Shown here: positions 29,379 through 45,809 of the stretch, piece by piece
How positions within the stretch are numbered: the stretch's first letter is position 1
Layout of the letters: every line of letters starts with the position of its first letter
Virus record (IMG/VR): IMGVR_UViG_3300042305_001483
Length of the DNA: 64,000 nucleotides
Source: a virus
Strand: one strand, 5' to 3'
Translations under genes and position numbers: made by a program
The notes under the pieces: generated by a model
Told to the model about the DNA's origin: nothing
The model's input: only the letters and a program-made list of their open reading frames with translations
The model's database searches: none

Positions 29379-31655
29379 ATGTTACAACCAAATAAAGATC
29401 TAGAGAAAATTTTTGAATTCGCTGTAGAAGTAGCCAGCGAAAAAAATCATGAATATGTGACTTTAGAACACTTTCTTTATGGAATGATTTCTAACGATGA
29501 GTTCGCTAAACTTCTAGAAAATTTTGGAGCCGATGTTAAAAGTTTGATTAAAAATTTAGAGCAATATATCAATGTAGAACTAAACGACATCGTTAACCCC
29601 AATGTTGATAAACCTAAAAAAACTACGTCAATTGATCGAGTTTTGAATAGAGCATTTACACATGTGTTGTTTGGCGGGCGAACTGTAATAGAGCCATTAG
29701 ATTGTTTCATCAGTATGTTTGCAGAAAAGAAAAGTCATGCAAATTATTTTATTAAAAAAGCAAACATTGATAAAGATCGATTTTTAAATTTCATTCAGAA
29801 AAAATATCAAGAAGAAAATGAAGAAGAATCAAGTTCTCAAAAAATTAATCCTCAAATTGAAAAAATGATCAATCAATTTTGCATTAATTTAACTGCAAAA
29901 GCCAAATCTAAAAAGATTGATCCAGTGATCGGAAGAGAAAAAGAAATTGAAGAAGTACAACTAGTTCTCGCAAGAAGAAATAAAAGCAATGTTATTTTGA
30001 TTGGAGATCCGGGTGTAGGTAAAACTGCAATTGCAGAAGGCATCGCTAAAAAAATTGTCGAAGGATCAGTTCCAAAATTTATCCAAGATCATATTGTGTA
30101 TAGTCTAGATATCAGTTCGTTATTAGCAGGAAGTAAATATCGAGGAGATTTCGAAGAACGCATTAAAATGATCATCAATGTTTTAGAAAGAAAAAAGAAT
30201 TGTATTCTTTTTATTGATGAGGCACACATGATGAACGGAGCCGGTGCTGCCAGCGGCAACAGCAATGATCTAGCAAATATGTTAAAACCAGCATTAACTA
30301 AGGGCACATTGAAAGTAATTGCCAGCACTACATGGGACGAGTTTAGAAAACATTTTGAAAAGGATCGTGCATTAATGCGTCGATTCCAACGTGTCACAGT
30401 TGATGAGCCAACCGAAGAAACATGTATTAAAATTCTAAAAGGTGTTAAAAAATATTACGAAAAACATCATAAAGTTAAAATTACCAATCAAGCATTAATT
30501 GATGCCGTAACATATTCTGTCAAATACATGACAGATAAAAAACTACCCGATAAAGCATTAGATTTAATCGATTGTGCTTGTGCTAGATTTAAGATTAAAG
30601 ATGAAGAAGGTGGAGTTGTCGACCACGATGAAATCGTTTACGAAGTTTCTAAACTTGCTAACCTTCCTGTTGAACAAGTAAGTTCCAAAGAAAGTGTAAA
30701 CCTTTCAAATCTAGAGAAAAATTTACGAAACAAAATTTTTGGTCAAGAGCAAGCAATTAGTTCTTTACTCGATAAAATTTTTATCAGTCAAGCAGGCCTC
30801 AAATCGTTTAATAAACCAATTGGTAGTTTTCTGTTTGTCGGACCAACAGGCGTTGGTAAAACTGAGGCTGCTAAACAACTAGCATCAGGATTAAATGTAA
30901 AACTTATACGTTTTGACATGAGTGAATTCCAAGAAAAGCATTCTGTAGCCAAATTTATCGGTGCTCCACCGGGATATATTGGGTTTGATGACAACGCAGG
31001 ACAATTAATTACTAATCTACAAGAAAATCCTAATTGTGTATTATTGCTTGATGAAGTTGAAAAGGCTCACCCAGATGTATTGACCATACTGTTACAATTA
31101 ATGGATAACGGATTTATCACTGGAAATAATGGAAAAAAAGCCGACGGAAGAAATGCTATTATTATTATGACTAGTAACCTCGGTGCTGTTGATGCTGAGA
31201 AAAATAGCGTAGGATTTGGTAATTTAGAAAGAGACGGTGATCCCAAAGACGCTGTTAATAGATTTTTTGCACCGGAATTTAGAAATAGACTTGACGGCAT
31301 TGTTAAATTTGGTAAACTTGATAAACCGACTATGTCTAAAATTGTCAAGAAGTTTATTGAAGAACTTAATGCACTTATTAAAGATAAAAGTATTCATGTT
31401 AAACCTACCAATGAAGCAGTAGAATTATTGATCGAAAAAGGATTTAATAGTAAAATGGGTGCAAGGCCCTTACAAAGAATTATCGATGAATTTATTAAGA
31501 AGCCAATGAGTAGAGAAATTTTGTTTGGAAAACTTGTTAATGGAGGTATTGTAGAAGTTAATGTCGTAGATAATAATCTCAATCTTAATATTATTGATCC
31601 AATGCCAATTTCAAAAGTGAAAGAAACAAATGAAAATTCAGAAACAAAAATCTAG
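29379..31655 (+). CDS. clpA: ATP-dependent Clp protease ATPase subunit, ClpA-type
   Basis: Clp N domain, two AAA+ modules (GDPGVGKT, GPTGVGKT), no middle domain, SVGF ClpP-docking loop. Confidence 0.92.
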   Translation: MLQPNKDLEKIFEFAVEVASEKNHEYVTLEHFLYGMISNDEFAKLLENFGADVKSLIKNLEQYINVELNDIVNPNVDKPKKTTSIDRVLNRAFTHVLFGGRTVIEPLDCFISMFAEKKSHANYFIKKANIDKDRFLNFIQKKYQEENEEESSSQKINPQIEKMINQFCINLTAKAKSKKIDPVIGREKEIEEVQLVLARRNKSNVILIGDPGVGKTAIAEGIAKKIVEGSVPKFIQDHIVYSLDISSLLAGSKYRGDFEERIKMIINVLERKKNCILFIDEAHMMNGAGAASGNSNDLANMLKPALTKGTLKVIASTTWDEFRKHFEKDRALMRRFQRVTVDEPTEETCIKILKGVKKYYEKHHKVKITNQALIDAVTYSVKYMTDKKLPDKALDLIDCACARFKIKDEEGGVVDHDEIVYEVSKLANLPVEQVSSKESVNLSNLEKNLRNKIFGQEQAISSLLDKIFISQAGLKSFNKPIGSFLFVGPTGVGKTEAAKQLASGLNVKLIRFDMSEFQEKHSVAKFIGAPPGYIGFDDNAGQLITNLQENPNCVLLLDEVEKAHPDVLTILLQLMDNGFITGNNGKKADGRNAIIIMTSNLGAVDAEKNSVGFGNLERDGDPKDAVNRFFAPEFRNRLDGIVKFGKLDKPTMSKIVKKFIEELNALIKDKSIHVKPTNEAVELLIEKGFNSKMGARPLQRIIDEFIKKPMSREILFGKLVNGGIVEVNVVDNNLNLNIIDPMPISKVKETNENSETKI

Positions 31656-38541: not shown

Positions 38542-38907
38542 ATGTTCTTAAAAGAATTTTTCAGCAAACCTATTGACATTGATCATAATCAAAAAAATAA
38601 AAATCAAATGCAAAATTTTGACGATGACTTATTTTGGTTTATTTTAGATAATGATCGGTTGCATAAAGAACATTTTTTTCCAATTTCTAAAAAAATAAAA
38701 TCATTAGACGAATGTGGCGATCGACAAATATACGAATTGTTTATGCCAATGGTCGTAGACGGTTGTAAAAACTTTTATGAAGACAAAAAAATGTCCGGTA
38801 GGATGAATAAAAAATTTCCTCAAGAAATGAGAGAAGGCATTTGTAAAAGGTTGTATGACCACTATTGTGAAAATTATGGTTTGAGAAATAAAAATGAAAA
38901 TCTTTGA
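38542..38907 (+). CDS. hypothetical late protein
   Basis: Start re-called to ATG 38542 (GGAG SD); MFLKEFF. Confidence 0.75.
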   Translation: MFLKEFFSKPIDIDHNQKNKNQMQNFDDDLFWFILDNDRLHKEHFFPISKKIKSLDECGDRQIYELFMPMVVDGCKNFYEDKKMSGRMNKKFPQEMREGICKRLYDHYCENYGLRNKNENL

Positions 38908-41900
38908 AATTATAAATATCTTTCAAAATAAAAAATTAACTGAAGGCGGTAATGCTCAAGTCGCCGATAGAGATAATCCAGAGATTGTATATTCTGCTGA
39001 AAAAATTGATCTTGAAAAAACTAACAGAACTCAGGCTGCTAATTTAGTAAAACAAACAATTAATGCGTTGAATCAAAGTTTTCAATCCATTTATAAAGAA
39101 CCAATTTTTGGAGAAGAATTATTTAAATCAAACGAATATTTAAGCGGAAGTTCTAAACACTTTTTTAATACTGCTGGAATTTCAGATCAAGAATTTACAA
39201 AATATAAACAAAAAGTCGGCGATATCGATGTACAATGCGATGTAGATCAAAAACCACAGATACAAAAATTTTTAGATGATCATTATAAACAACAGTTTGG
39301 TCCAGGAAGATTATTGGGATATTCTTCTTCTGCGGAACAATTCAATTCAATTTTTCGTATCGACGAAATTGGACTAAATGTTCAAATTGATTTTGAATTT
39401 GGGCAATATGATAAAGAATTAGGTCACCCCACCGAATGGTATAAATTTAGTCATAGTTCAGAGTGGGACGATATTACCGCAGGCATTAAGGGTGTATTTC
39501 ATAAATGGATTTACAGAGCATTACCTGCTGCTAAAGTAACTCCAAAGCACATAGCAGCATATAAAGGCTCGGGAAAAAATCGTGCTATTAATATAGAACC
39601 AGAACCTACTCAATCAAAAGATATAAGTTTTGCAGTAGGAAGCAGTCAGGGAGGTGGAGCAAGTTATAAATTCTCTCCTTACTTAGATCCGCAAACTGGA
39701 AAACCTATGGATATAAAAGGTGTTCCTGTACAACAAGAATTGCCCAGCGCTCAAAGAACTTATATACAAAATTTAGATCAACAGTTCGAAATGTTTTTTG
39801 GAGTGCAGCCCAGCGGAAACGATAAAACTTTACAAAAAAGTTATGTAGGGACTTTAGAACTAATGAACAAATATTTAGATCAAAGTCAAATAACTGCTGC
39901 ATTTGAAGAATTTATAAAAATTTGTTTTGACGAAGCAGCACAGATGATCGATCGAGATAATCCAGAATCCGATGCTGAGGCAAAATTTGCCGCAATTGAT
40001 AAAGGACTAGAAATTTTAAAAATTTCAAACAAAAAACAATTACGAGATCAAGCAGTAGCAATGGCAAAAATATATTCAGATGAATATTTTGATTTACAAC
40101 AATTTAAGAAATGGTTTGATAGTTTACCTAAAGAAAAACAAGATGCTATCAATGTAACCAGCAAAGGTGCTGCTAGAAAAGATATTCAGTATAATTCTCT
40201 TAGAAAAAAATTAAAAGCAGCCGGACAATGGCCTATTAATGTATTAACAGAAGAAGATGCCAAGCCAAATTATGGTAGGCAAGGTATTGAACACATTTAT
40301 AGTCGTAGACCCGACGGTACTCCAAGTAGTACAGAAATGAAGCCTGCTGCATTCGTAGAATTATGCGACGAAATAGCACAACTAGGCGGAAATTTAGATA
40401 ATATACAGATAAATTTAAAAGTCGACGGAATGGGTATGAGATTCGGTAAAGACGAATCTGGAGAGCCATTTTTTATTACTAGCAGTAGATCAGATCCAGT
40501 TAGATTAAAAGATGTAGGATCATTCTTGGCTTATAATCAAGAATTAGTAAAAAAAGGTGAATTAGATCCGAACAGCGAATTAGGTAAAGCCGCAATTGCA
40601 AGAGCAATTAATTATGACAAGGCTGCTGAAACAATTTTAAAAAGTAAATTTATTCAAACTTTACCCCCCGACACAATTGTACAAGCAGAAATGATGTACG
40701 ATTCGAATATGACTCCAGACAGTCAAGGATTTAAAACATTTGTTAATATTCCTTACGATGTAAAAAAATTAGGGAAAGTAATGACGTTGGCCCCGTTCAT
40801 GGTTAAAAAGTATTCAACTAAAGAACGAATACCCGATGAACAAAATATAATTAAAAAATTACTATCAACAAGTGATTCTAACATTAAAATTATTTCAAAC
40901 GAATTAGATCAATCAGGAATAAATGTTGGTAAAATAATTGCTCCTGTTGTCAATTTGCCTGCAGATTTGCGGGCAACACTGACTAGCAGAAAACCAGCAG
41001 ACAGAGCCATTAGAGATGCTCAAGTAATTCCTGTATTAGATAAAGCAAGGGCAGAATTAAGTAAGGCAATTATTGATAGTCCAAAATTAAAAGGTATGGA
41101 TATGCTAGGCCCATACAACGAAGGTATTGTTGGAAACATGCCTAGTGGAAGACTATTTAAAGTTACAAGTCCCTTGATGAAAGAAAAAATATTACAAAAG
41201 CAATCATTTGGATCTGTTGAAAAAAGATCTGCGGTTGTTGCCATGGGTAGTTTTGCTGGACATAGAGGTCATGAACAGTTAATAAGTATTGCCATAGATA
41301 GAGCAAATAAAGAAGGAGCGACTCCATTTGTATATGTAGGTGGTAAAGTAGGACCAGATGATCCATTTCCTGTAGAAACAAAATTAGAAACTCTTAGAAA
41401 ACTATTTCCAGGAGTAGGCATATTAAGTGTAGACGCACAATTTGATTTACAAACAGATAAAGCAACAATTGGTCAATTTGGTAAGAAAGTCGAATATGAA
41501 CTAATGAAAAAACCGCCGTATTTTAATCATATTATTATAGCAGTAGGCGAAGACAGAAAAGCATTTGCAGATGGGTTAGTTGCATGGGCAACCAATAGAT
41601 TTGGAAACCATCCAAATCTAAAGCATGTTAAATGGGAAGAAGATATAAGTTCTCGAAATGAAGAAGCAGGCGGAACTGGTGTAAGCACTACTCAAATGAG
41701 AAATGCATTAAAAACTATGCCTGAAAATCAAGCCCTTCAAATATGGAGCAAAGGTTTTAATGTAGAAAAATTAGGTGTTGAATATATCAAACACCTAATG
41801 GATGTTGCAAGAAAAAATATGAATATCCAACCTCCCGCTGCTGCTCCCGTAGTAGAATCATCTATATTTGATCCTGTACCTGGAAAAATAAATGTAGGTG

Positions 41901-42151
41901 ATTTAGTTTCATTTAAAGGTTCTAGCGAAACATGGAAAGTAATAGCAGTTAATTTAGATCGATCTAAAGCAAAAATAAAATCAGTTGACACAGGAATGAT
42001 TCATAAATTCGACACTGAAAATCTTTATAAAATTAATAATAAAGATTATACATCAGAAACTAGATTGTTTAATGCACTATTAAGGTTAAATTTTACCAAT
42101 GAAACAGTATTACATCACTCAAGAAAATATCGCACAAGACAGCCCCGATGA
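38894..42151 (+). CDS. multidomain protein: Pol-beta-like NTase + ligase-like (KxDG) domain + HIGH-family nucleotidyltransferase
   Basis: GS…VGDIDVQ…QID…GIKG; NLKVDG…EG.V; GSFAGHRGH…VGEDR…GVSTTQMR. Confidence 0.7.
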   Translation: MKIFEIINIFQNKKLTEGGNAQVADRDNPEIVYSAEKIDLEKTNRTQAANLVKQTINALNQSFQSIYKEPIFGEELFKSNEYLSGSSKHFFNTAGISDQEFTKYKQKVGDIDVQCDVDQKPQIQKFLDDHYKQQFGPGRLLGYSSSAEQFNSIFRIDEIGLNVQIDFEFGQYDKELGHPTEWYKFSHSSEWDDITAGIKGVFHKWIYRALPAAKVTPKHIAAYKGSGKNRAINIEPEPTQSKDISFAVGSSQGGGASYKFSPYLDPQTGKPMDIKGVPVQQELPSAQRTYIQNLDQQFEMFFGVQPSGNDKTLQKSYVGTLELMNKYLDQSQITAAFEEFIKICFDEAAQMIDRDNPESDAEAKFAAIDKGLEILKISNKKQLRDQAVAMAKIYSDEYFDLQQFKKWFDSLPKEKQDAINVTSKGAARKDIQYNSLRKKLKAAGQWPINVLTEEDAKPNYGRQGIEHIYSRRPDGTPSSTEMKPAAFVELCDEIAQLGGNLDNIQINLKVDGMGMRFGKDESGEPFFITSSRSDPVRLKDVGSFLAYNQELVKKGELDPNSELGKAAIARAINYDKAAETILKSKFIQTLPPDTIVQAEMMYDSNMTPDSQGFKTFVNIPYDVKKLGKVMTLAPFMVKKYSTKERIPDEQNIIKKLLSTSDSNIKIISNELDQSGINVGKIIAPVVNLPADLRATLTSRKPADRAIRDAQVIPVLDKARAELSKAIIDSPKLKGMDMLGPYNEGIVGNMPSGRLFKVTSPLMKEKILQKQSFGSVEKRSAVVAMGSFAGHRGHEQLISIAIDRANKEGATPFVYVGGKVGPDDPFPVETKLETLRKLFPGVGILSVDAQFDLQTDKATIGQFGKKVEYELMKKPPYFNHIIIAVGEDRKAFADGLVAWATNRFGNHPNLKHVKWEEDISSRNEEAGGTGVSTTQMRNALKTMPENQALQIWSKGFNVEKLGVEYIKHLMDVARKNMNIQPPAAAPVVESSIFDPVPGKINVGDLVSFKGSSETWKVIAVNLDRSKAKIKSVDTGMIHKFDTENLYKINNKDYTSETRLFNALLRLNFTNETVLHHSRKYRTRQPR

Positions 42152-42407
42152 TTGCTATCTTGCACCCGACGATCCCGCACATCAAATAAAAAGACTTCAG
42201 TTTTTAGGAGGTCTAGGCGGACAAGCAAGATTAGCGGAATATAATCAACAGACTGCGCAATCTAGATTAAATCAAGGTGGTAACATTACAACAACCGCAG
42301 CAGAAAATGCTCGTATTATGCGTGAAAAAAATATTCAGCCAGGAACAGAAGAATGGTTTAAACTTTGGTTCAGTAAACCCTACCTAACTGGCGAACGTAA
42401 AATTTAA
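42099..42407 (+). CDS. hypothetical phage protein
   Basis: IQPGTEEWFKLWF motif. Confidence 0.75.
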   Translation: MKQYYITQENIAQDSPDDCYLAPDDPAHQIKRLQFLGGLGGQARLAEYNQQTAQSRLNQGGNITTTAAENARIMREKNIQPGTEEWFKLWFSKPYLTGERKI

Positions 42408-42420
42408 TAAATATACGATC

Positions 42421-42855
42421 ATGGAACAATTACACCAATTAGCAAAAATAGCATTTGCCAGCGAGTTTAGTTTTTATCTAAAAGCACACCAATTCCATTG
42501 GAACGTAGAAGGTATGTTTTTTGAACCTTTGCATAATCTATTTGGTAAAATTTACGAAGAAGTTTATGAAAGCATAGATGTGTTTGCTGAACAAATTCGT
42601 AGTTTAGATACATATATGCCCGGCAGTTACACTAGACTTAATATGTTAACACAAGTCGAAGACGAAACAGAAATCTTCGACGGTAAGCAAATGGTTGCTG
42701 AATTGCTTAAAGATAATGAAAAAATGAAAGTTATCTTAAAGAAATTGTTCGAAGTCAGTGAAGCAGCAGGCGAACATGGATTTAGTGATTTTATTGCTAG
42801 TAGATTAGATGCTCATGCTAAACACGGTTGGATGTTAAAGGCAACACTTAAATGA
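42421..42855 (+). CDS. dps: Dps / ferritin-like DNA-protection protein
   Basis: HQFHWNVEG..F..LH, D..AE.IR, H.KHGWML. Confidence 0.93.
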   Translation: MEQLHQLAKIAFASEFSFYLKAHQFHWNVEGMFFEPLHNLFGKIYEEVYESIDVFAEQIRSLDTYMPGSYTRLNMLTQVEDETEIFDGKQMVAELLKDNEKMKVILKKLFEVSEAAGEHGFSDFIASRLDAHAKHGWMLKATLK

Positions 42856-43217
42856 GAGCACGCGAATTCATGGTTGAACGCAAAGGCGGAAAAATGACCA
42901 AGCGTCAACAAAATCCTACCCGCGGCGTTAACAAATACACTGATGACGATAAGTGGAATAGCGATTACAAATTATATAGATTGGGCTTGGCACTGGCTGC
43001 AACTGATGGAAAAACAATGCCAGAGATGGATGAAGAAAGTTGGATCGGTAGATATAAAAGTCTACATCCATATAGTCAATGTGATCAAGATATGATCAAT
43101 GTTGCGGCTAAAGTAGCCGGAGTTAATATACACGATGTAAACAAAGGTGACATGAGAAGTCAAGAAACACCAGATACTTATACAGTAAGTCCAGTGGCGA
43201 ATTGGAGTAAAAAATGA
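42852..43217 (+). CDS. putative internal head protein
   Basis: MRAREFMVE resembles the T4 internal-protein targeting sequence MKTYQEFIAE. Confidence 0.7.
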   Translation: MRAREFMVERKGGKMTKRQQNPTRGVNKYTDDDKWNSDYKLYRLGLALAATDGKTMPEMDEESWIGRYKSLHPYSQCDQDMINVAAKVAGVNIHDVNKGDMRSQETPDTYTVSPVANWSKK

Positions 43218-45163
43218 ACGAAGAATTTAAAAAAGTTAAATTACCTAATGAAACTAGGTACGTTTTAGAAACAACAACTGCAGGTGCTATTGGAACGAAT
43301 AGTATTGCTACTGCGGAAAAACCCCTAGGTGAACTTCAAAGACGACAGACAATTTCTGTGCCTGTTAATCAGAAGCCTCGTCAAGGTCCGATGAAATCAC
43401 AGACCGGTGCAGGTGCGCATCGTGATAAGAAAAAAGAACAAAAACAAGGTAAAGAAAAACATCGTAAGCCTTTTGATGAAGAGAAAGGTGTAGCAGAAGG
43501 AATTGAACAAGCCGATCTAAGTCCAGAGGTTATTGAAATATCCAAGGATCTTTATAAATCCTTGCGTCGTTCAGCCAGAGATTCGTTACGAGCCAAAAAA
43601 ACTATGTTAGTTATTAAGATAACCCGTGAATTGACCCCTCAAGAAAAAAAACTAGTAGATGACACTATGAATCAATCTGGTATTGAGTATCAGATCAAAA
43701 ATAATGTAAACGATTATGTGTATGGAACCTATAAAAATACATTAATCGGTATACCATATACACAATCTACTACGGAACAAGGTGTGGCGGAAACAACAGG
43801 TGACGAAAAATTTGATAAATCAATGAGAAAAATGACTGGAAAAATTACTCCAGGCGATGCTGACGAGATGTGGCCGACACAAGAATTTGAACCAGTTGAT
43901 CTTGATCCATCATACTTGCCAAGTATGGAAAAATACAAGGCAAAATTATTTCCATTGGCTTACCAATACTGGACTGACGGCGACAATGCAGATGAATTAA
44001 GGGCATTAGGATGGGAACCCGATTATGGCGACGACTATGTTATGGTGGTGCTGTCTGGCATCGGACACGACGGTCACATTCAATACGACAAATATGATTT
44101 TGATGCTGAAGATGAAAACAATGAAGGTGTGGCGGAAGGCGATCAAGAACCTGACCACGAAATTAGCATGGCCAGCAACGAACTCCAAAGTATCATGTCT
44201 GATGCTAAAAAATTATTAGTTCTAATCAAACGTTATAGCGAGATGGAAGGGCTAGAAGCATGGCAACAAAGTAAAATTACTAAATCGGCAGATTATTTAA
44301 CTGCTGTATTGCGCAGCATCGGTGGAGAACAAGGTGCGTTAGAATCTCAAGTTAATGAGTACGAAACCCACACTTATAAAGATAGTCAAGGCAATGTATG
44401 GCGTGTCAACGACGAGGGCGAAAAAGAATTACTTCGTGGAGCACCGGGCAGTAGTTATGGCGGTAGCAGATATGGATCAAGATATCCTAGTAGATCATAT
44501 TCAAAGCCTTCAGGAATGTATTTTTATAACGTAAAACCTGGGCAAGAAAATGATGCACAATCTGCTGGTTTAAAACAAAGCAAAAGTGGAAAATGGTATT
44601 CGACTTATCAAAATTCACAAGCAGATAAATTATTTGGTCCAGGAAAGTTTTGGCAACCAAAAAATGAAGCAAGTGTAGCGGAAGGTATGAATTCTTTATC
44701 ATTCTGGAAGCGTGAAGCACAAAAGGCCGGTGGTGCTGCCAATATTGATTGGTATGCTATTGGCGTCGAACACGGCAAACAAGGTATTGTAATGAATCCT
44801 CCATATGGTGTAGGCGCTAAAGCCGTAACATTATACGGCAAAGGATTAGATGCCGGTCAGCAAGGTGTAGCGGAAGGCAAGAAAAAAGGTGTAGATGGTA
44901 AAGCCTGCTGGAAAGGTTACAAACGTATGGGCACTAAAAAGAAAGGTGGCCGCACTGTAGACAACTGTGTACCAGTAGGCGAGGATTCTTATATCGAAAG
45001 TCTTATGAATCAACTATATGAAAAGGCTCCTCCAGGAGACAAATATGAACGTATAGTCAAGCATATTAAAGCAGGATATAGAAAAGACGGTAAACTAACT
45101 GATGTAGAAAAACGCAAGGCCTACGGTGCTGCTTGGAAGGCAAAAAATAAATCAAAAAAGTAA
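43214..45163 (+). CDS. modular putative polyprotein with repeated GVAE(G) linkers
   Basis: Five (G/S)VAE motifs separating compositionally distinct modules. Confidence 0.8.
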   Translation: MNEEFKKVKLPNETRYVLETTTAGAIGTNSIATAEKPLGELQRRQTISVPVNQKPRQGPMKSQTGAGAHRDKKKEQKQGKEKHRKPFDEEKGVAEGIEQADLSPEVIEISKDLYKSLRRSARDSLRAKKTMLVIKITRELTPQEKKLVDDTMNQSGIEYQIKNNVNDYVYGTYKNTLIGIPYTQSTTEQGVAETTGDEKFDKSMRKMTGKITPGDADEMWPTQEFEPVDLDPSYLPSMEKYKAKLFPLAYQYWTDGDNADELRALGWEPDYGDDYVMVVLSGIGHDGHIQYDKYDFDAEDENNEGVAEGDQEPDHEISMASNELQSIMSDAKKLLVLIKRYSEMEGLEAWQQSKITKSADYLTAVLRSIGGEQGALESQVNEYETHTYKDSQGNVWRVNDEGEKELLRGAPGSSYGGSRYGSRYPSRSYSKPSGMYFYNVKPGQENDAQSAGLKQSKSGKWYSTYQNSQADKLFGPGKFWQPKNEASVAEGMNSLSFWKREAQKAGGAANIDWYAIGVEHGKQGIVMNPPYGVGAKAVTLYGKGLDAGQQGVAEGKKKGVDGKACWKGYKRMGTKKKGGRTVDNCVPVGEDSYIESLMNQLYEKAPPGDKYERIVKHIKAGYRKDGKLTDVEKRKAYGAAWKAKNKSKK

Positions 45164-45203
45164 GTGAGCAGGAACCGCAAGATCCGGCACAGGATCCTGC
45201 TCA
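45154..45203 (+). promoter_or_regulatory. predicted -1 programmed ribosomal frameshift signal
   Basis: In-frame A_AAA_AAG (45154-60) directly before the stop; 9-bp stem tgagcagga/tcctgctca 4 nt downstream. Confidence 0.7.
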
Positions 45204-45381
45204 AGATAAACCTAAATTAAAGCCGGCAGTAAAATTAACTCCTGCCGTGTCATTGGATCAATGGGAACAAACTTTTTTAGATGCTGACCCAGAAAGATAT
45301 CATCAATTTAGAAATAAAACTCCTGCTAAAAAAATTCAAATGGCACAGTCTGCTAGAAAACACGCTATTGAGAAAAACTGA
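45160..45381 (+). CDS. -1 frame extension (~73 aa) of the 43214 protein
   Basis: Open -1 frame VSEQEPQDPAQD…RKHAIEKN*; no start codon or SD at its 5' end; TGA overlaps next ATG. Confidence 0.65.
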   Translation, partial: VSEQEPQDPAQDPAQDKPKLKPAVKLTPAVSLDQWEQTFLDADPERYHQFRNKTPAKKIQMAQSARKHAIEKN

Positions 45382-45809
45382 TGAGAAATTTTATAACATT
45401 AGTCGAATCGGCAAATAAAGGTTGCCCAATTGCCACACATAACATAGATATTAATTTAAAAAATCGGCAAAAAGCCATAGACGAATATCACTACGGGCCA
45501 GCCAATCCCGATAAACCAGAAGATTATTGGAAAAAATCTGCTAAGATATTTGGAGTAAGTGAGACAACTGCTAAAACAATGCGATGCGGTAATTGTGCAG
45601 CATTCGATGTTAGCGATAGCATGAGGGAATGCATTGCAACTGGGATTAAAGGCAACGAAAAAAATATTGACCCAAACGCAACTATAAATCTCAGCGATCT
45701 AGGATATTGTAATTTTTTACATTTTAAATGTGCAGGTAGTCGCAGTTGTAAAGCATGGGTTACCGGAGGCCCAATTACTGAAAAAGATAAAGGTAAGAAA
45801 GCAGATTAA
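45381..45809 (+). CDS. Cys-rich putative internal head protein
   Basis: MRNFITLVES; CGNC…C…C…C…C. Confidence 0.75.
   Translation: MRNFITLVESANKGCPIATHNIDINLKNRQKAIDEYHYGPANPDKPEDYWKKSAKIFGVSETTAKTMRCGNCAAFDVSDSMRECIATGIKGNEKNIDPNATINLSDLGYCNFLHFKCAGSRSCKAWVTGGPITEKDKGKKAD

Follow-up and report, generated by a model that had tools for sequence, protein, structure and literature searches.

A mosaic polyprotein of a giant T4-like phage exchanges its modules at in-frame joints and may be a precursor of capsid-packaged cargo proteins

What would hold a short piece of DNA almost constant when it recurs five times within one phage gene, in frame, between unrelated segments? The gene that raises this question is an open reading frame (ORF) in IMG/VR virus record IMGVR_UViG_3300042305_001483, of which we analysed a stretch of 64,000 nucleotides (nt), here called the window; the genome is that of a giant T4-like phage, uncultured and lake-derived. 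The original prediction described a modular polyprotein with five [G/S]VAE junctions, beginning at positions 43487, 43781, 44126, 44672, and 44864, whose DNA is near-identical. We found all five joints at these positions, with the joint DNA as described and the codon GCG in four of the five. The stretch encoding the polyprotein is retained in five lake-metagenome runs (97–99% of sampled words). BLAST coverage along the query steps up and down at the joints and defines modules, which we call A to H. The ORF and its joints are as follows.

43214..45163, + strand: polyprotein ORF, an open frame with a zero-frame product of 649 amino acids (aa)
43487..43498, + strand: joint 1, GVAE, GGTGTAGCAGAA; the left breakpoint of a B+C replacement in run X15 lies at 43500
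43781..43792, + strand: joint 2, GGTGTGGCGGAA; left edge of a 98.9%-identical block common to loci L002–L007
44126..44137, + strand: joint 3, GGTGTGGCGGAA; right edge of the shared block, with breakpoints at 44124 (X15) and 44123 (X19)
44672..44683, + strand: joint 4, SVAE, AGTGTAGCGGAA; found as a motif match
44864..44875, + strand: joint 5, GGTGTAGCGGAA; breakpoints at 44875 (X7, X9) and 44878 (X19)

The pattern GGTGTRGCRGAA, with at most one mismatch, matched six times in the window compared to 0.61 expected, and none of 100 shuffles reached six. Among all ORFs of at least 80 aa on the whole contig, 10 VAE tripeptides were present, five of them in the polyprotein ORF. The joint is also a feature of a large family. 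A protein-collection search returned 603 matches of very different lengths, mostly covering 8–30% of the query at 60–90% identity, and nearly all of these homologues hold several copies of [E/K/Q]-Q-G-V-A-E-[G/A/D/E]. GVAE was the commonest tetrapeptide in 239 family members (361 times in 123,453 residues), and VAE was observed 474 times in the same set, where 43 would be expected from composition. The order of shared modules varied between proteins (for example, A-F-D..E-F-G or A-E..D-G), and 20–24% of internal alignment ends fell within 5 residues of a joint, compared to 5% for random positions. Single-linkage clustering of the segments between joints merged them into one giant cluster, since several modules lie within many such segments, and we retained the figures for module C alone. 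Full-text literature searches for GVAE or QGVAE together with phage returned no description of the joint motif. The literature matches to QGVAE were all repeats of human alpha-synuclein (KTKQGVAEAA), which we take as coincidence.

The DNA of the joint, with the consensus GAG CAA GGT GTG GCG GAA GGC, was fixed at silent positions. For codon counts we fetched loci by peptide patterns that exclude the joint itself, which gave 54 distinct joints. The joint Ala was encoded by GCG in 48 of 54 cases (background in the same ORFs, 5.4%), the Val by GTG in 45 of 54 (17%), and the Gly by GGT in 45 of 45 (49%); the Gly after the joint (+1) was GGC in 27 of 32 (28%), and the Glu two codons upstream (–2) was GAG in 20 of 26 (16%). 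Equally conserved control peptide motifs in the same ORFs (KPRQG, QTGAGxH, KPFxE, HEISMA, and CWKGY) showed ordinary synonymous variation. When we searched ~1.5 Mb by DNA first, the exact 12-mer occurred 48 times; 46 copies lay within a long ORF in frame 0, and no copy lay in another frame of such an ORF. Its one-mismatch variants were synonymous in 16 of 28 cases compared to 28% expected, and the joint peptide is therefore also under selection. The exact 17-mer CAAGGTGTGGCGGAAGG was present in at least 120 IMG/VR stretches, often two to four times per locus, and all 23 of the intra-locus spacings among the matches listed were multiples of 3. The codon counts, the control motifs, and the 12-mer test together bear out the earlier claim that the joint DNA is conserved beyond amino-acid need. 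Candidate causes are pool-wide compatibility kept up by exchange, a specific enzyme, and a Shine-Dalgarno-like pause. Three others were rejected: a Chi-like role across the genome (the motif occurs in joint-bearing ORFs only), internal translation starts after the joints (there is no consistent start codon), and rare-codon pausing (the joint combines the commonest codons, GGT and GAA, with the rarest, GCG, so that the pattern is specific to the sequence and is no rarity effect).

Exchange at the joints was seen in several comparisons. The DNA of module C (43778–44136) is 98.9% identical in six loci (L002–L007) whose genes neighbouring the module are 73–76% identical and whose adjacent modules cannot be aligned. 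This block of identity begins with CAAGGTGTGGCGGA of joint 2 and ends with GAAGGTGTGGCGGA of joint 3, and in other proteins module C is preceded by 12 different upstream neighbours. In protein P0001, modules A and D to H are 100% identical to the query and B+C is replaced by one 79-residue module, X. A 3,080-nt contig from run X15 matched 42400–43500 plus 44124–44720 with two mismatches in total over 1.7 kb of flank, and carried 221 other letters instead of 43501–44123. This is the P0001 architecture from joint 1 to joint 3, and the insert has exactly the length expected for the 79-residue module. Module X recurs at no less than 97% identity behind GVAEG, with a different leader, in locus L114. 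Loose contig ends fell at joints 3 and 5 (44123 in X19, 44875 in X7 and X9, and 44878 in X19), and an alternative cassette in X7 and X9 joins 44875 to 45256. Parts of the stretch without cover by metagenome contigs were not counted as absent. The 31-mers on which Logan contigs are built exceed the joint repeat in length, and false joins caused by the repeat alone are therefore not expected.

These data show that phages replace, add, and lose modules exactly at the joints. Gain, loss, and replacement occurred, as had been proposed, both between diverged phages and between near-identical phages that co-occur; the contrary pattern named in the original prediction, a fixed module order with synonymous divergence at the GVAE codons, was not seen. 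Because the joints always stand in the same reading frame, any two of them can recombine with the frame kept. Two side observations concern the same loci. The second leader type in L114 (4000–5486), MKIDQIINEM↓TSSGAVASVS.. (here and below ↓ marks a predicted cut), stands ahead of a D-like module and module X and resembles the start of a 1085-aa neighbour gene in the window. In addition, contigs of three runs start or end at one 30-mer (44691–44720) just past joint 4, which suggests a further population branch point a few codons into module F.

The modules between the joints are listed below, with the isoelectric point (pI) where it is extreme and the confidence (predicted local distance difference test score, pLDDT) of an AlphaFold2 (AF2) model; CTS stands for the capsid targeting sequence of T4.

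43214..43270, + strand: CTS-like propeptide, residues 1–19, ending Y-V-L-E; the first cut is predicted before TTTAGA (74-sequence leader alignment)
43271..43498, + strand: remainder of leader module A, residues 20–95, basic (pI 10.1), ending KHRKPFDEEKGVAE; defined by homologue coverage
43499..43792, + strand: module B, residues 96–193, with a helical start; coverage step, AF2 helices at 104–154, no family match
43793..44137, + strand: module C, residues 194–308, acidic (pI 4.1); 359 nt 98.9% identical to L004 7261–7619
44138..44344, + strand: module D, residues 309–377, a helical hairpin (AF2 pLDDT 82–91) ending QGALE, a joint-like site
44345..44683, + strand: module E, residues 378–490, a small beta-rich basic domain (AF2 pLDDT 88–98 at 431–485); coverage step
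44684..44875, + strand: module F, residues 491–554; 87–91% identical copies at other positions in P0011, P0050, and P0078
44876..45013, + strand: module G, residues 555–600, a CWKGY...NCV beta hairpin (AF2 pLDDT 75–85); PHROG families without known function
45014..45160, + strand: module H, residues 601–649, a DUF6321-like helical tail; 53–72% identity to small cyanophage proteins

The segments had been described as basic, acidic, helical, and so on, with further x-x-E sites inside them, and both descriptions hold: the leader is basic, C is acidic, D is helical, and E and G+H are basic, with VLE at residues 17–19, ALE at 375–377, VNE at 380–382, VGE at 588–590, and LYE at 601–603. With a 50-sequence alignment as input, AlphaFold gave a model of mean pLDDT 59.6 in which D, part of E, G, and H were predicted with confidence. 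The propeptide (residues 1–19) was modelled as a beta hairpin (pLDDT 73–75). All five joints fell in predicted disordered linkers (pLDDT <50) flanked by confident domains. Leader A is N-terminal in ~80 of 120 homologues, and the leader alone retrieved 286 representative clusters (E ≤ 0.001), almost always at the N terminus of proteins of 97–825 aa. Module D is the most widespread after the leader, with a D-like segment in cyanophages S-H9-1 and S-WAM2. A search of the modules against the ESM Atlas gave TM scores of at most 0.43 and no usable lead, and a search of PHROGs gave matches for G and H alone, to families without known function. Neither the whole protein nor residues 555–649 matched Pfam DUF6321 (PF19846); that label is precomputed on homologues, one cyanophage relative being annotated DUF6321.

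Some observations on single modules stand apart. Module G (CWKGYK...GG..V.NCVP, ~40 aa) shows 80–89% nt identity across more than 100 otherwise unrelated phage loci and in many contexts, including straight after a CTS-like leader in L209 and L244. The leader's basic part (QKPRQGP..GAGAHRDKKKEQKQGKEKHRKPF) behaves like an independent module, because it is also found internally in other proteins (P0147, P0159, P0170, P0178, and residues 121–173 of the polyprotein of the related phage G003). In G003, the N-terminal part of the leader is encoded as a separate 68-aa gene.

How might such a protein be used? T4 internal proteins, which are very variable, are loaded into the capsid by a 10-residue N-terminal targeting sequence (PMC9026906; PMC3012670), MKTYQEFIAE (PMC8442874), and the T4 prohead protease gp21 cuts after Glu in L/I-x-E (PMC9026906). 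The polyprotein has a short leader of this kind: M1-E19 ends in Y-V-L-E, a hydrophobic-x-Glu site conserved in 74 relatives. Alignment of these 74 sequences gave a conserved family leader, MNNEFKKI...TRYVLE↓TASAGATSAG.VA, and after it a basic stretch that ends in KHRKPF[A/M/Y]E↓. The relative G003, a 399,796-bp contig with a completeness score of 100%, is collinear with the 125.5-kb IMG/VR contig that contains the window over more than 100 kb at 40–73% protein identity (DNA polymerase, 73%), and carries genes for the portal, a Peptidase_S77 (gp21) protease, the scaffold, and the gp23 capsid protein, arranged as in T4. A gp21-family protease and a gp23-type capsid protein are also present in relatives G004 and G005. 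In a search of all ORFs of two genomes, a hidden Markov model (HMM) of the leader matched the G003 capsid protein at ..NTRKYLAE↓TASAGTTSAGNVATLNRV (E 3e-6), aligning the propeptide end Y-V-L-E with ..RKYLAE↓TASAGTTSAGNVA. The predicted cut at this YLAE site lies 41 residues from the N terminus, which we take, by comparison with the T4 gp23 site, to be where T4-type capsid proteins mature. The capsid-protein sites read YLAE↓T in G003 and YLAE↓S in G004, and the G004 scaffold protein contains eight [LIVF]-A-E sites. V-A-E likewise fits the hydrophobic-x-Glu rule.

Leaders of the CTS type are enriched among carriers of the joint. The 17-mer retrieved a very diverse set of joint-bearing ORFs; by a loose pattern (M-x4-10-hydrophobic-x-Glu), 27 of 48 such ORFs with an intact 5' end had a CTS-like start, compared to 88 of 446 other ORFs from the same loci (Fisher p 2e-7). 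Examples are MRATEFIIE-GVAEG, MKINEIISE, and MRFKQIIE-TTTAGSVATV. The module H homologues of cyanophages S-RSM4, S-H9-1, and S-WAM2 start with MKTFKQFRE or MKTFKQLRE, and the cyanophage homologues of H and D adjoin genes annotated as structural or head proteins.

We propose, with a probability of about 0.6, that the polyprotein is a cargo precursor made up of a leader and small, independently folding modules, each bounded by [E/K/Q]-Q-G-V-A-E↓G. The leader would bring the precursor into the prohead core, where a gp21-type prohead protease would cut at YVLE↓T, at KPFxE↓, at the five xVAE↓ joints, and probably at GALE↓S. Cutting would free seven to nine proteins of 7–13 kDa, which would remain with the DNA and pass into the host along with it. 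Modules are swapped in frame at the joints, and a –1 frameshift at A_AAA_AAG may make a second, longer form with one more module. Packaging and cutting by a gp21-type protease is inferred from the genes: the hydrophobic-x-Glu fit, the match between leader and capsid protein, the G003 protease, and the tags of the cyanophage homologues all argue for it indirectly. The original prediction had invoked phiKZ gp175 beside T4 gp21, and this half of its comparison did not stand. The phiKZ cut rule is S/A/G-x-E, and all five joints, like the 474 family sites, have Val at position P3, so the joint does not fit. A role of the modules against host defences, as suggested by T4 IPI, stays an analogy because no module matched a known family or fold.

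Several points weigh against this proposal. Val at P3 lies outside the published T4 L/I-x-E logo. The joint is also far more specific than the protease rule requires, so something further must constrain it. The crude CTS pattern is passed by 56% of the joint-bearing ORFs and no more. Modules B, C, and F folded poorly in the AF2 model, and two boundaries lack a standard joint (D|E has GALE, and G|H has none). No module matched Pfam (searched per module, E ≤ 5), NCBIfam, PDB sequences, or the PDB by Foldseek on the AF2 model. PF03420 and PF07068 (gp21 and gp23) were not found on the phage's own, 35%-complete contig, where synteny with G003 would place the head-gene block just past the contig end. 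Breakpoints at 43726 and 45256 lie away from any joint, and those at joints could reflect the survival of whole-domain recombinants alone.

Among the alternatives, the fixation of 17–21 nt across hundreds of otherwise unrelated genes, a length that exceeds the need of short-homology recombination, could mean that the 21-nt core has a specific function as DNA or RNA. It might be a nuclease or recombinase site or, as the core includes AGGTG and GGAAGG, a Shine-Dalgarno-like pause (AGGUG, GGAAGG) that separates the folding of modules. We consider this an unlikely account: the window contains no gene for a nuclease or recombinase in linkage with the locus, the motif is without dyad symmetry and was not found outside such ORFs in the 125-kb contig, and exchange itself would maintain a frozen joint compatible across the pool.

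A multidomain protein that is never cut, with GVAEG as a flexible linker whose DNA is kept uniform through recombination, would require no proteolysis at all. The placement of all joints in predicted disordered linkers is what this predicts, and fixation at the DNA level alone would hold the peptide constant. We nevertheless find it rather doubtful, since variants of the joint are mostly synonymous and retain Val, Ala, and Glu when the codons differ, the joint belongs to the same hydrophobic-A-E class as the capsid and scaffold sites of relatives, CTS-like leaders are enriched among the carriers, and in MRATEFIIE-GVAEG the joint directly follows a 9-residue leader, where no spacer is needed.

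Cutting in the cytoplasm by another protease, without packaging, seems improbable. The window does encode a large ATP-dependent protease (758 aa, 29379–31655; phrog_4871, E 8e-249), which could act in this way, as could a host enzyme, and the locus lies far from the head genes in G003. To our knowledge, however, ATP-dependent proteases make no site-specific cuts after Glu, and the genes for T4 internal proteins also lie away from the head genes; the leader's match to the predicted maturation site of the capsid protein and the enrichment of CTS-like leaders point the same way. Finally, chance, low-complexity sequence, or an assembly artefact, which the shortness of the motif and nothing else would favour, was ruled out for practical purposes by the shuffles, the contig-wide counts, the five independent runs that contain the stretch, and the presence of the joint in frame in hundreds of independent contigs.

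The cargo-precursor proposal includes a longer product, and the 3' end of the ORF appears to provide for it by a dnaX-type –1 frameshift that extends the polyprotein. The ORF ends in TCA AAA AAG TAA, and the features concerned are the following.

45154..45160, + strand: slippery heptamer A_AAA_AAG, directly before the TAA stop; conserved in seven distinct relatives
45166..45202, + strand: stem-loop 6 nt past the heptamer, with arms GAGCAGG and CCTGCTC; arms invariant in six relatives
45154..45378, + strand: –1 frame extension of ~75 aa, KKVSEQEP..., without its own start codon; a conserved peptide

The heptamer and the stop are kept in seven distinct relatives, as is a –1 frame peptide reading KKVSEQ[E/D]P, and in L016 a segment homologous to the extension is fused in frame. 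The loop of the downstream 7-bp stem varies among six relatives while its arms are invariant, with no compensatory changes. The likeness to dnaX comprises the identical heptamer, the putative stem-loop 6 nt downstream, and the conserved –1 frame without a start codon. The predicted shift would lengthen the product here, whereas it shortens the product in dnaX.

The surroundings of the gene are those of a T4-like genome. The contig has a completeness estimate of 35%, and the window encodes a T4-type DNA polymerase and long tail-fibre genes beside the ATP-dependent protease. The local order is kept in G003, where a 663-aa GVAE polyprotein comes after nucleotidyltransferase genes, a 125-aa gene, and small leader-like genes, and the DNA polymerase follows it. 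Starts resembling the T4 CTS are also present on adjoining ORFs of the window (MRAREFMVE at 42852–43217, MRNFITLVE at 45381–45809, and MKIFEIINIF..KLTE at 38894–42151) and on the syntenic G003 genes (MKIREILAE, MRLRELYE↓TASGGATSAGNV, MTIKNFIQLVE, and MKSIKNYISLVE). The locus as a whole looks like a cluster of capsid-targeted cargo genes.

The closest kin of the polyprotein are the T4 internal proteins by function and the shuffling of PeSL cassettes by DNA mechanism, and it differs from both. With the internal proteins of T4 and the T-even phages (IPI, IPII, IPIII, and Alt) it shares a short N-terminal leader ending hydrophobic-x-Glu. Those proteins are small, very variable, often basic or acidic cargo that is loaded into the prohead core and injected, as the polyprotein modules would be. 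Internal-protein loci of T-even phages are hypervariable between related phages (PMC9026906, PMC3012670). In cyanophages, the homologues of H and D follow the classical pattern of one leader for one protein (MKTFKQFRE compared to T4 MKTYQEFIAE). Unlike the T4 proteins, the polyprotein has one leader for at least seven modules, a single ORF with internal joints that resemble cut sites, and a joint with Val at P3, a fixed seven-residue context, and DNA fixed at silent sites.

In hyperplastic regions of T4-type phages, short conserved PeSL elements flank non-essential cassettes (PMC2839356, Arbiol et al. 2010; PMC4122927, Comeau et al. 2014), which related phages insert, delete, and replace at these sites by short-homology recombination (PMC2839356; PMC4122927). 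Conserved leader elements at T-even internal-protein loci are described by Repoila et al. (1994), as cited in PMC2839356/PMC4122927. The polyprotein modules are likewise flanked by a conserved DNA element in which the exchange breakpoints lie, save 43726 and 45256. A PeSL is ~100 bp, intergenic, and contains a promoter and a terminator, whereas the joint is 12–21 nt, lies inside a frame, encodes a peptide with a probable function of its own, and shuffles protein domains instead of genes. The joint has neither promoter nor stem-loop, and so differs from the intergenic element by which a PeSL is defined (PMC2839356).

In phiKZ-like giant phages (phiKZ gp175, SPN3US gp245), where head and inner-body proteins are processed at multiple sites, many head proteins are substrates of a gp21-related protease that cleaves behind the Glu of a three-residue motif, and the pieces are ejected (PMC9026906, PMC10052503). 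The head genes of the relatives of the present phage differ from these in being T4-type. We know of no phiKZ-like substrates that form mosaic arrays with a joint fixed in its DNA. Integrons offer another likeness, with a pool of exchangeable cassettes, a common short boundary site, and variable arrays; here, in contrast, there is no integrase or attC-like structure, and modules are exchanged in frame inside one protein. General phage recombination is the probable mechanism. A bolder idea, to which we give little credence, is a protein-level integron of T4-like phages, a dedicated system for in-frame cassette exchange with the 21-nt joint as its attachment site. A phage-encoded nuclease or recombinase, or excised module mini-circles, would then carry single modules from one cargo polyprotein to another among co-infecting phages. 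If true, this would mean a community pool of injected effectors that could be reshuffled during a single infection, and seven codons that act both as protease site and as recombination site.

The injected internal proteins of T4 are the classic fast-evolving counter-defence arsenal, with one gene for each; in the cargo precursor that we propose, such an arsenal would stand in one frame. The joints appear to carry two codes, one in the peptide (a probable protease site) and one in the DNA (a recombination site compatible across the pool), which would explain how large uncultured phages could reassort their cargo quickly with frames intact. The 17-mer is a simple handle by which hundreds of candidate injected proteins can be catalogued in metagenomes, and the arrangement hints at a natural rule by which T4-type capsids could be designed to take up several proteins. 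The system also offers a clean test of whether silent sites can be conserved by recombination compatibility alone.

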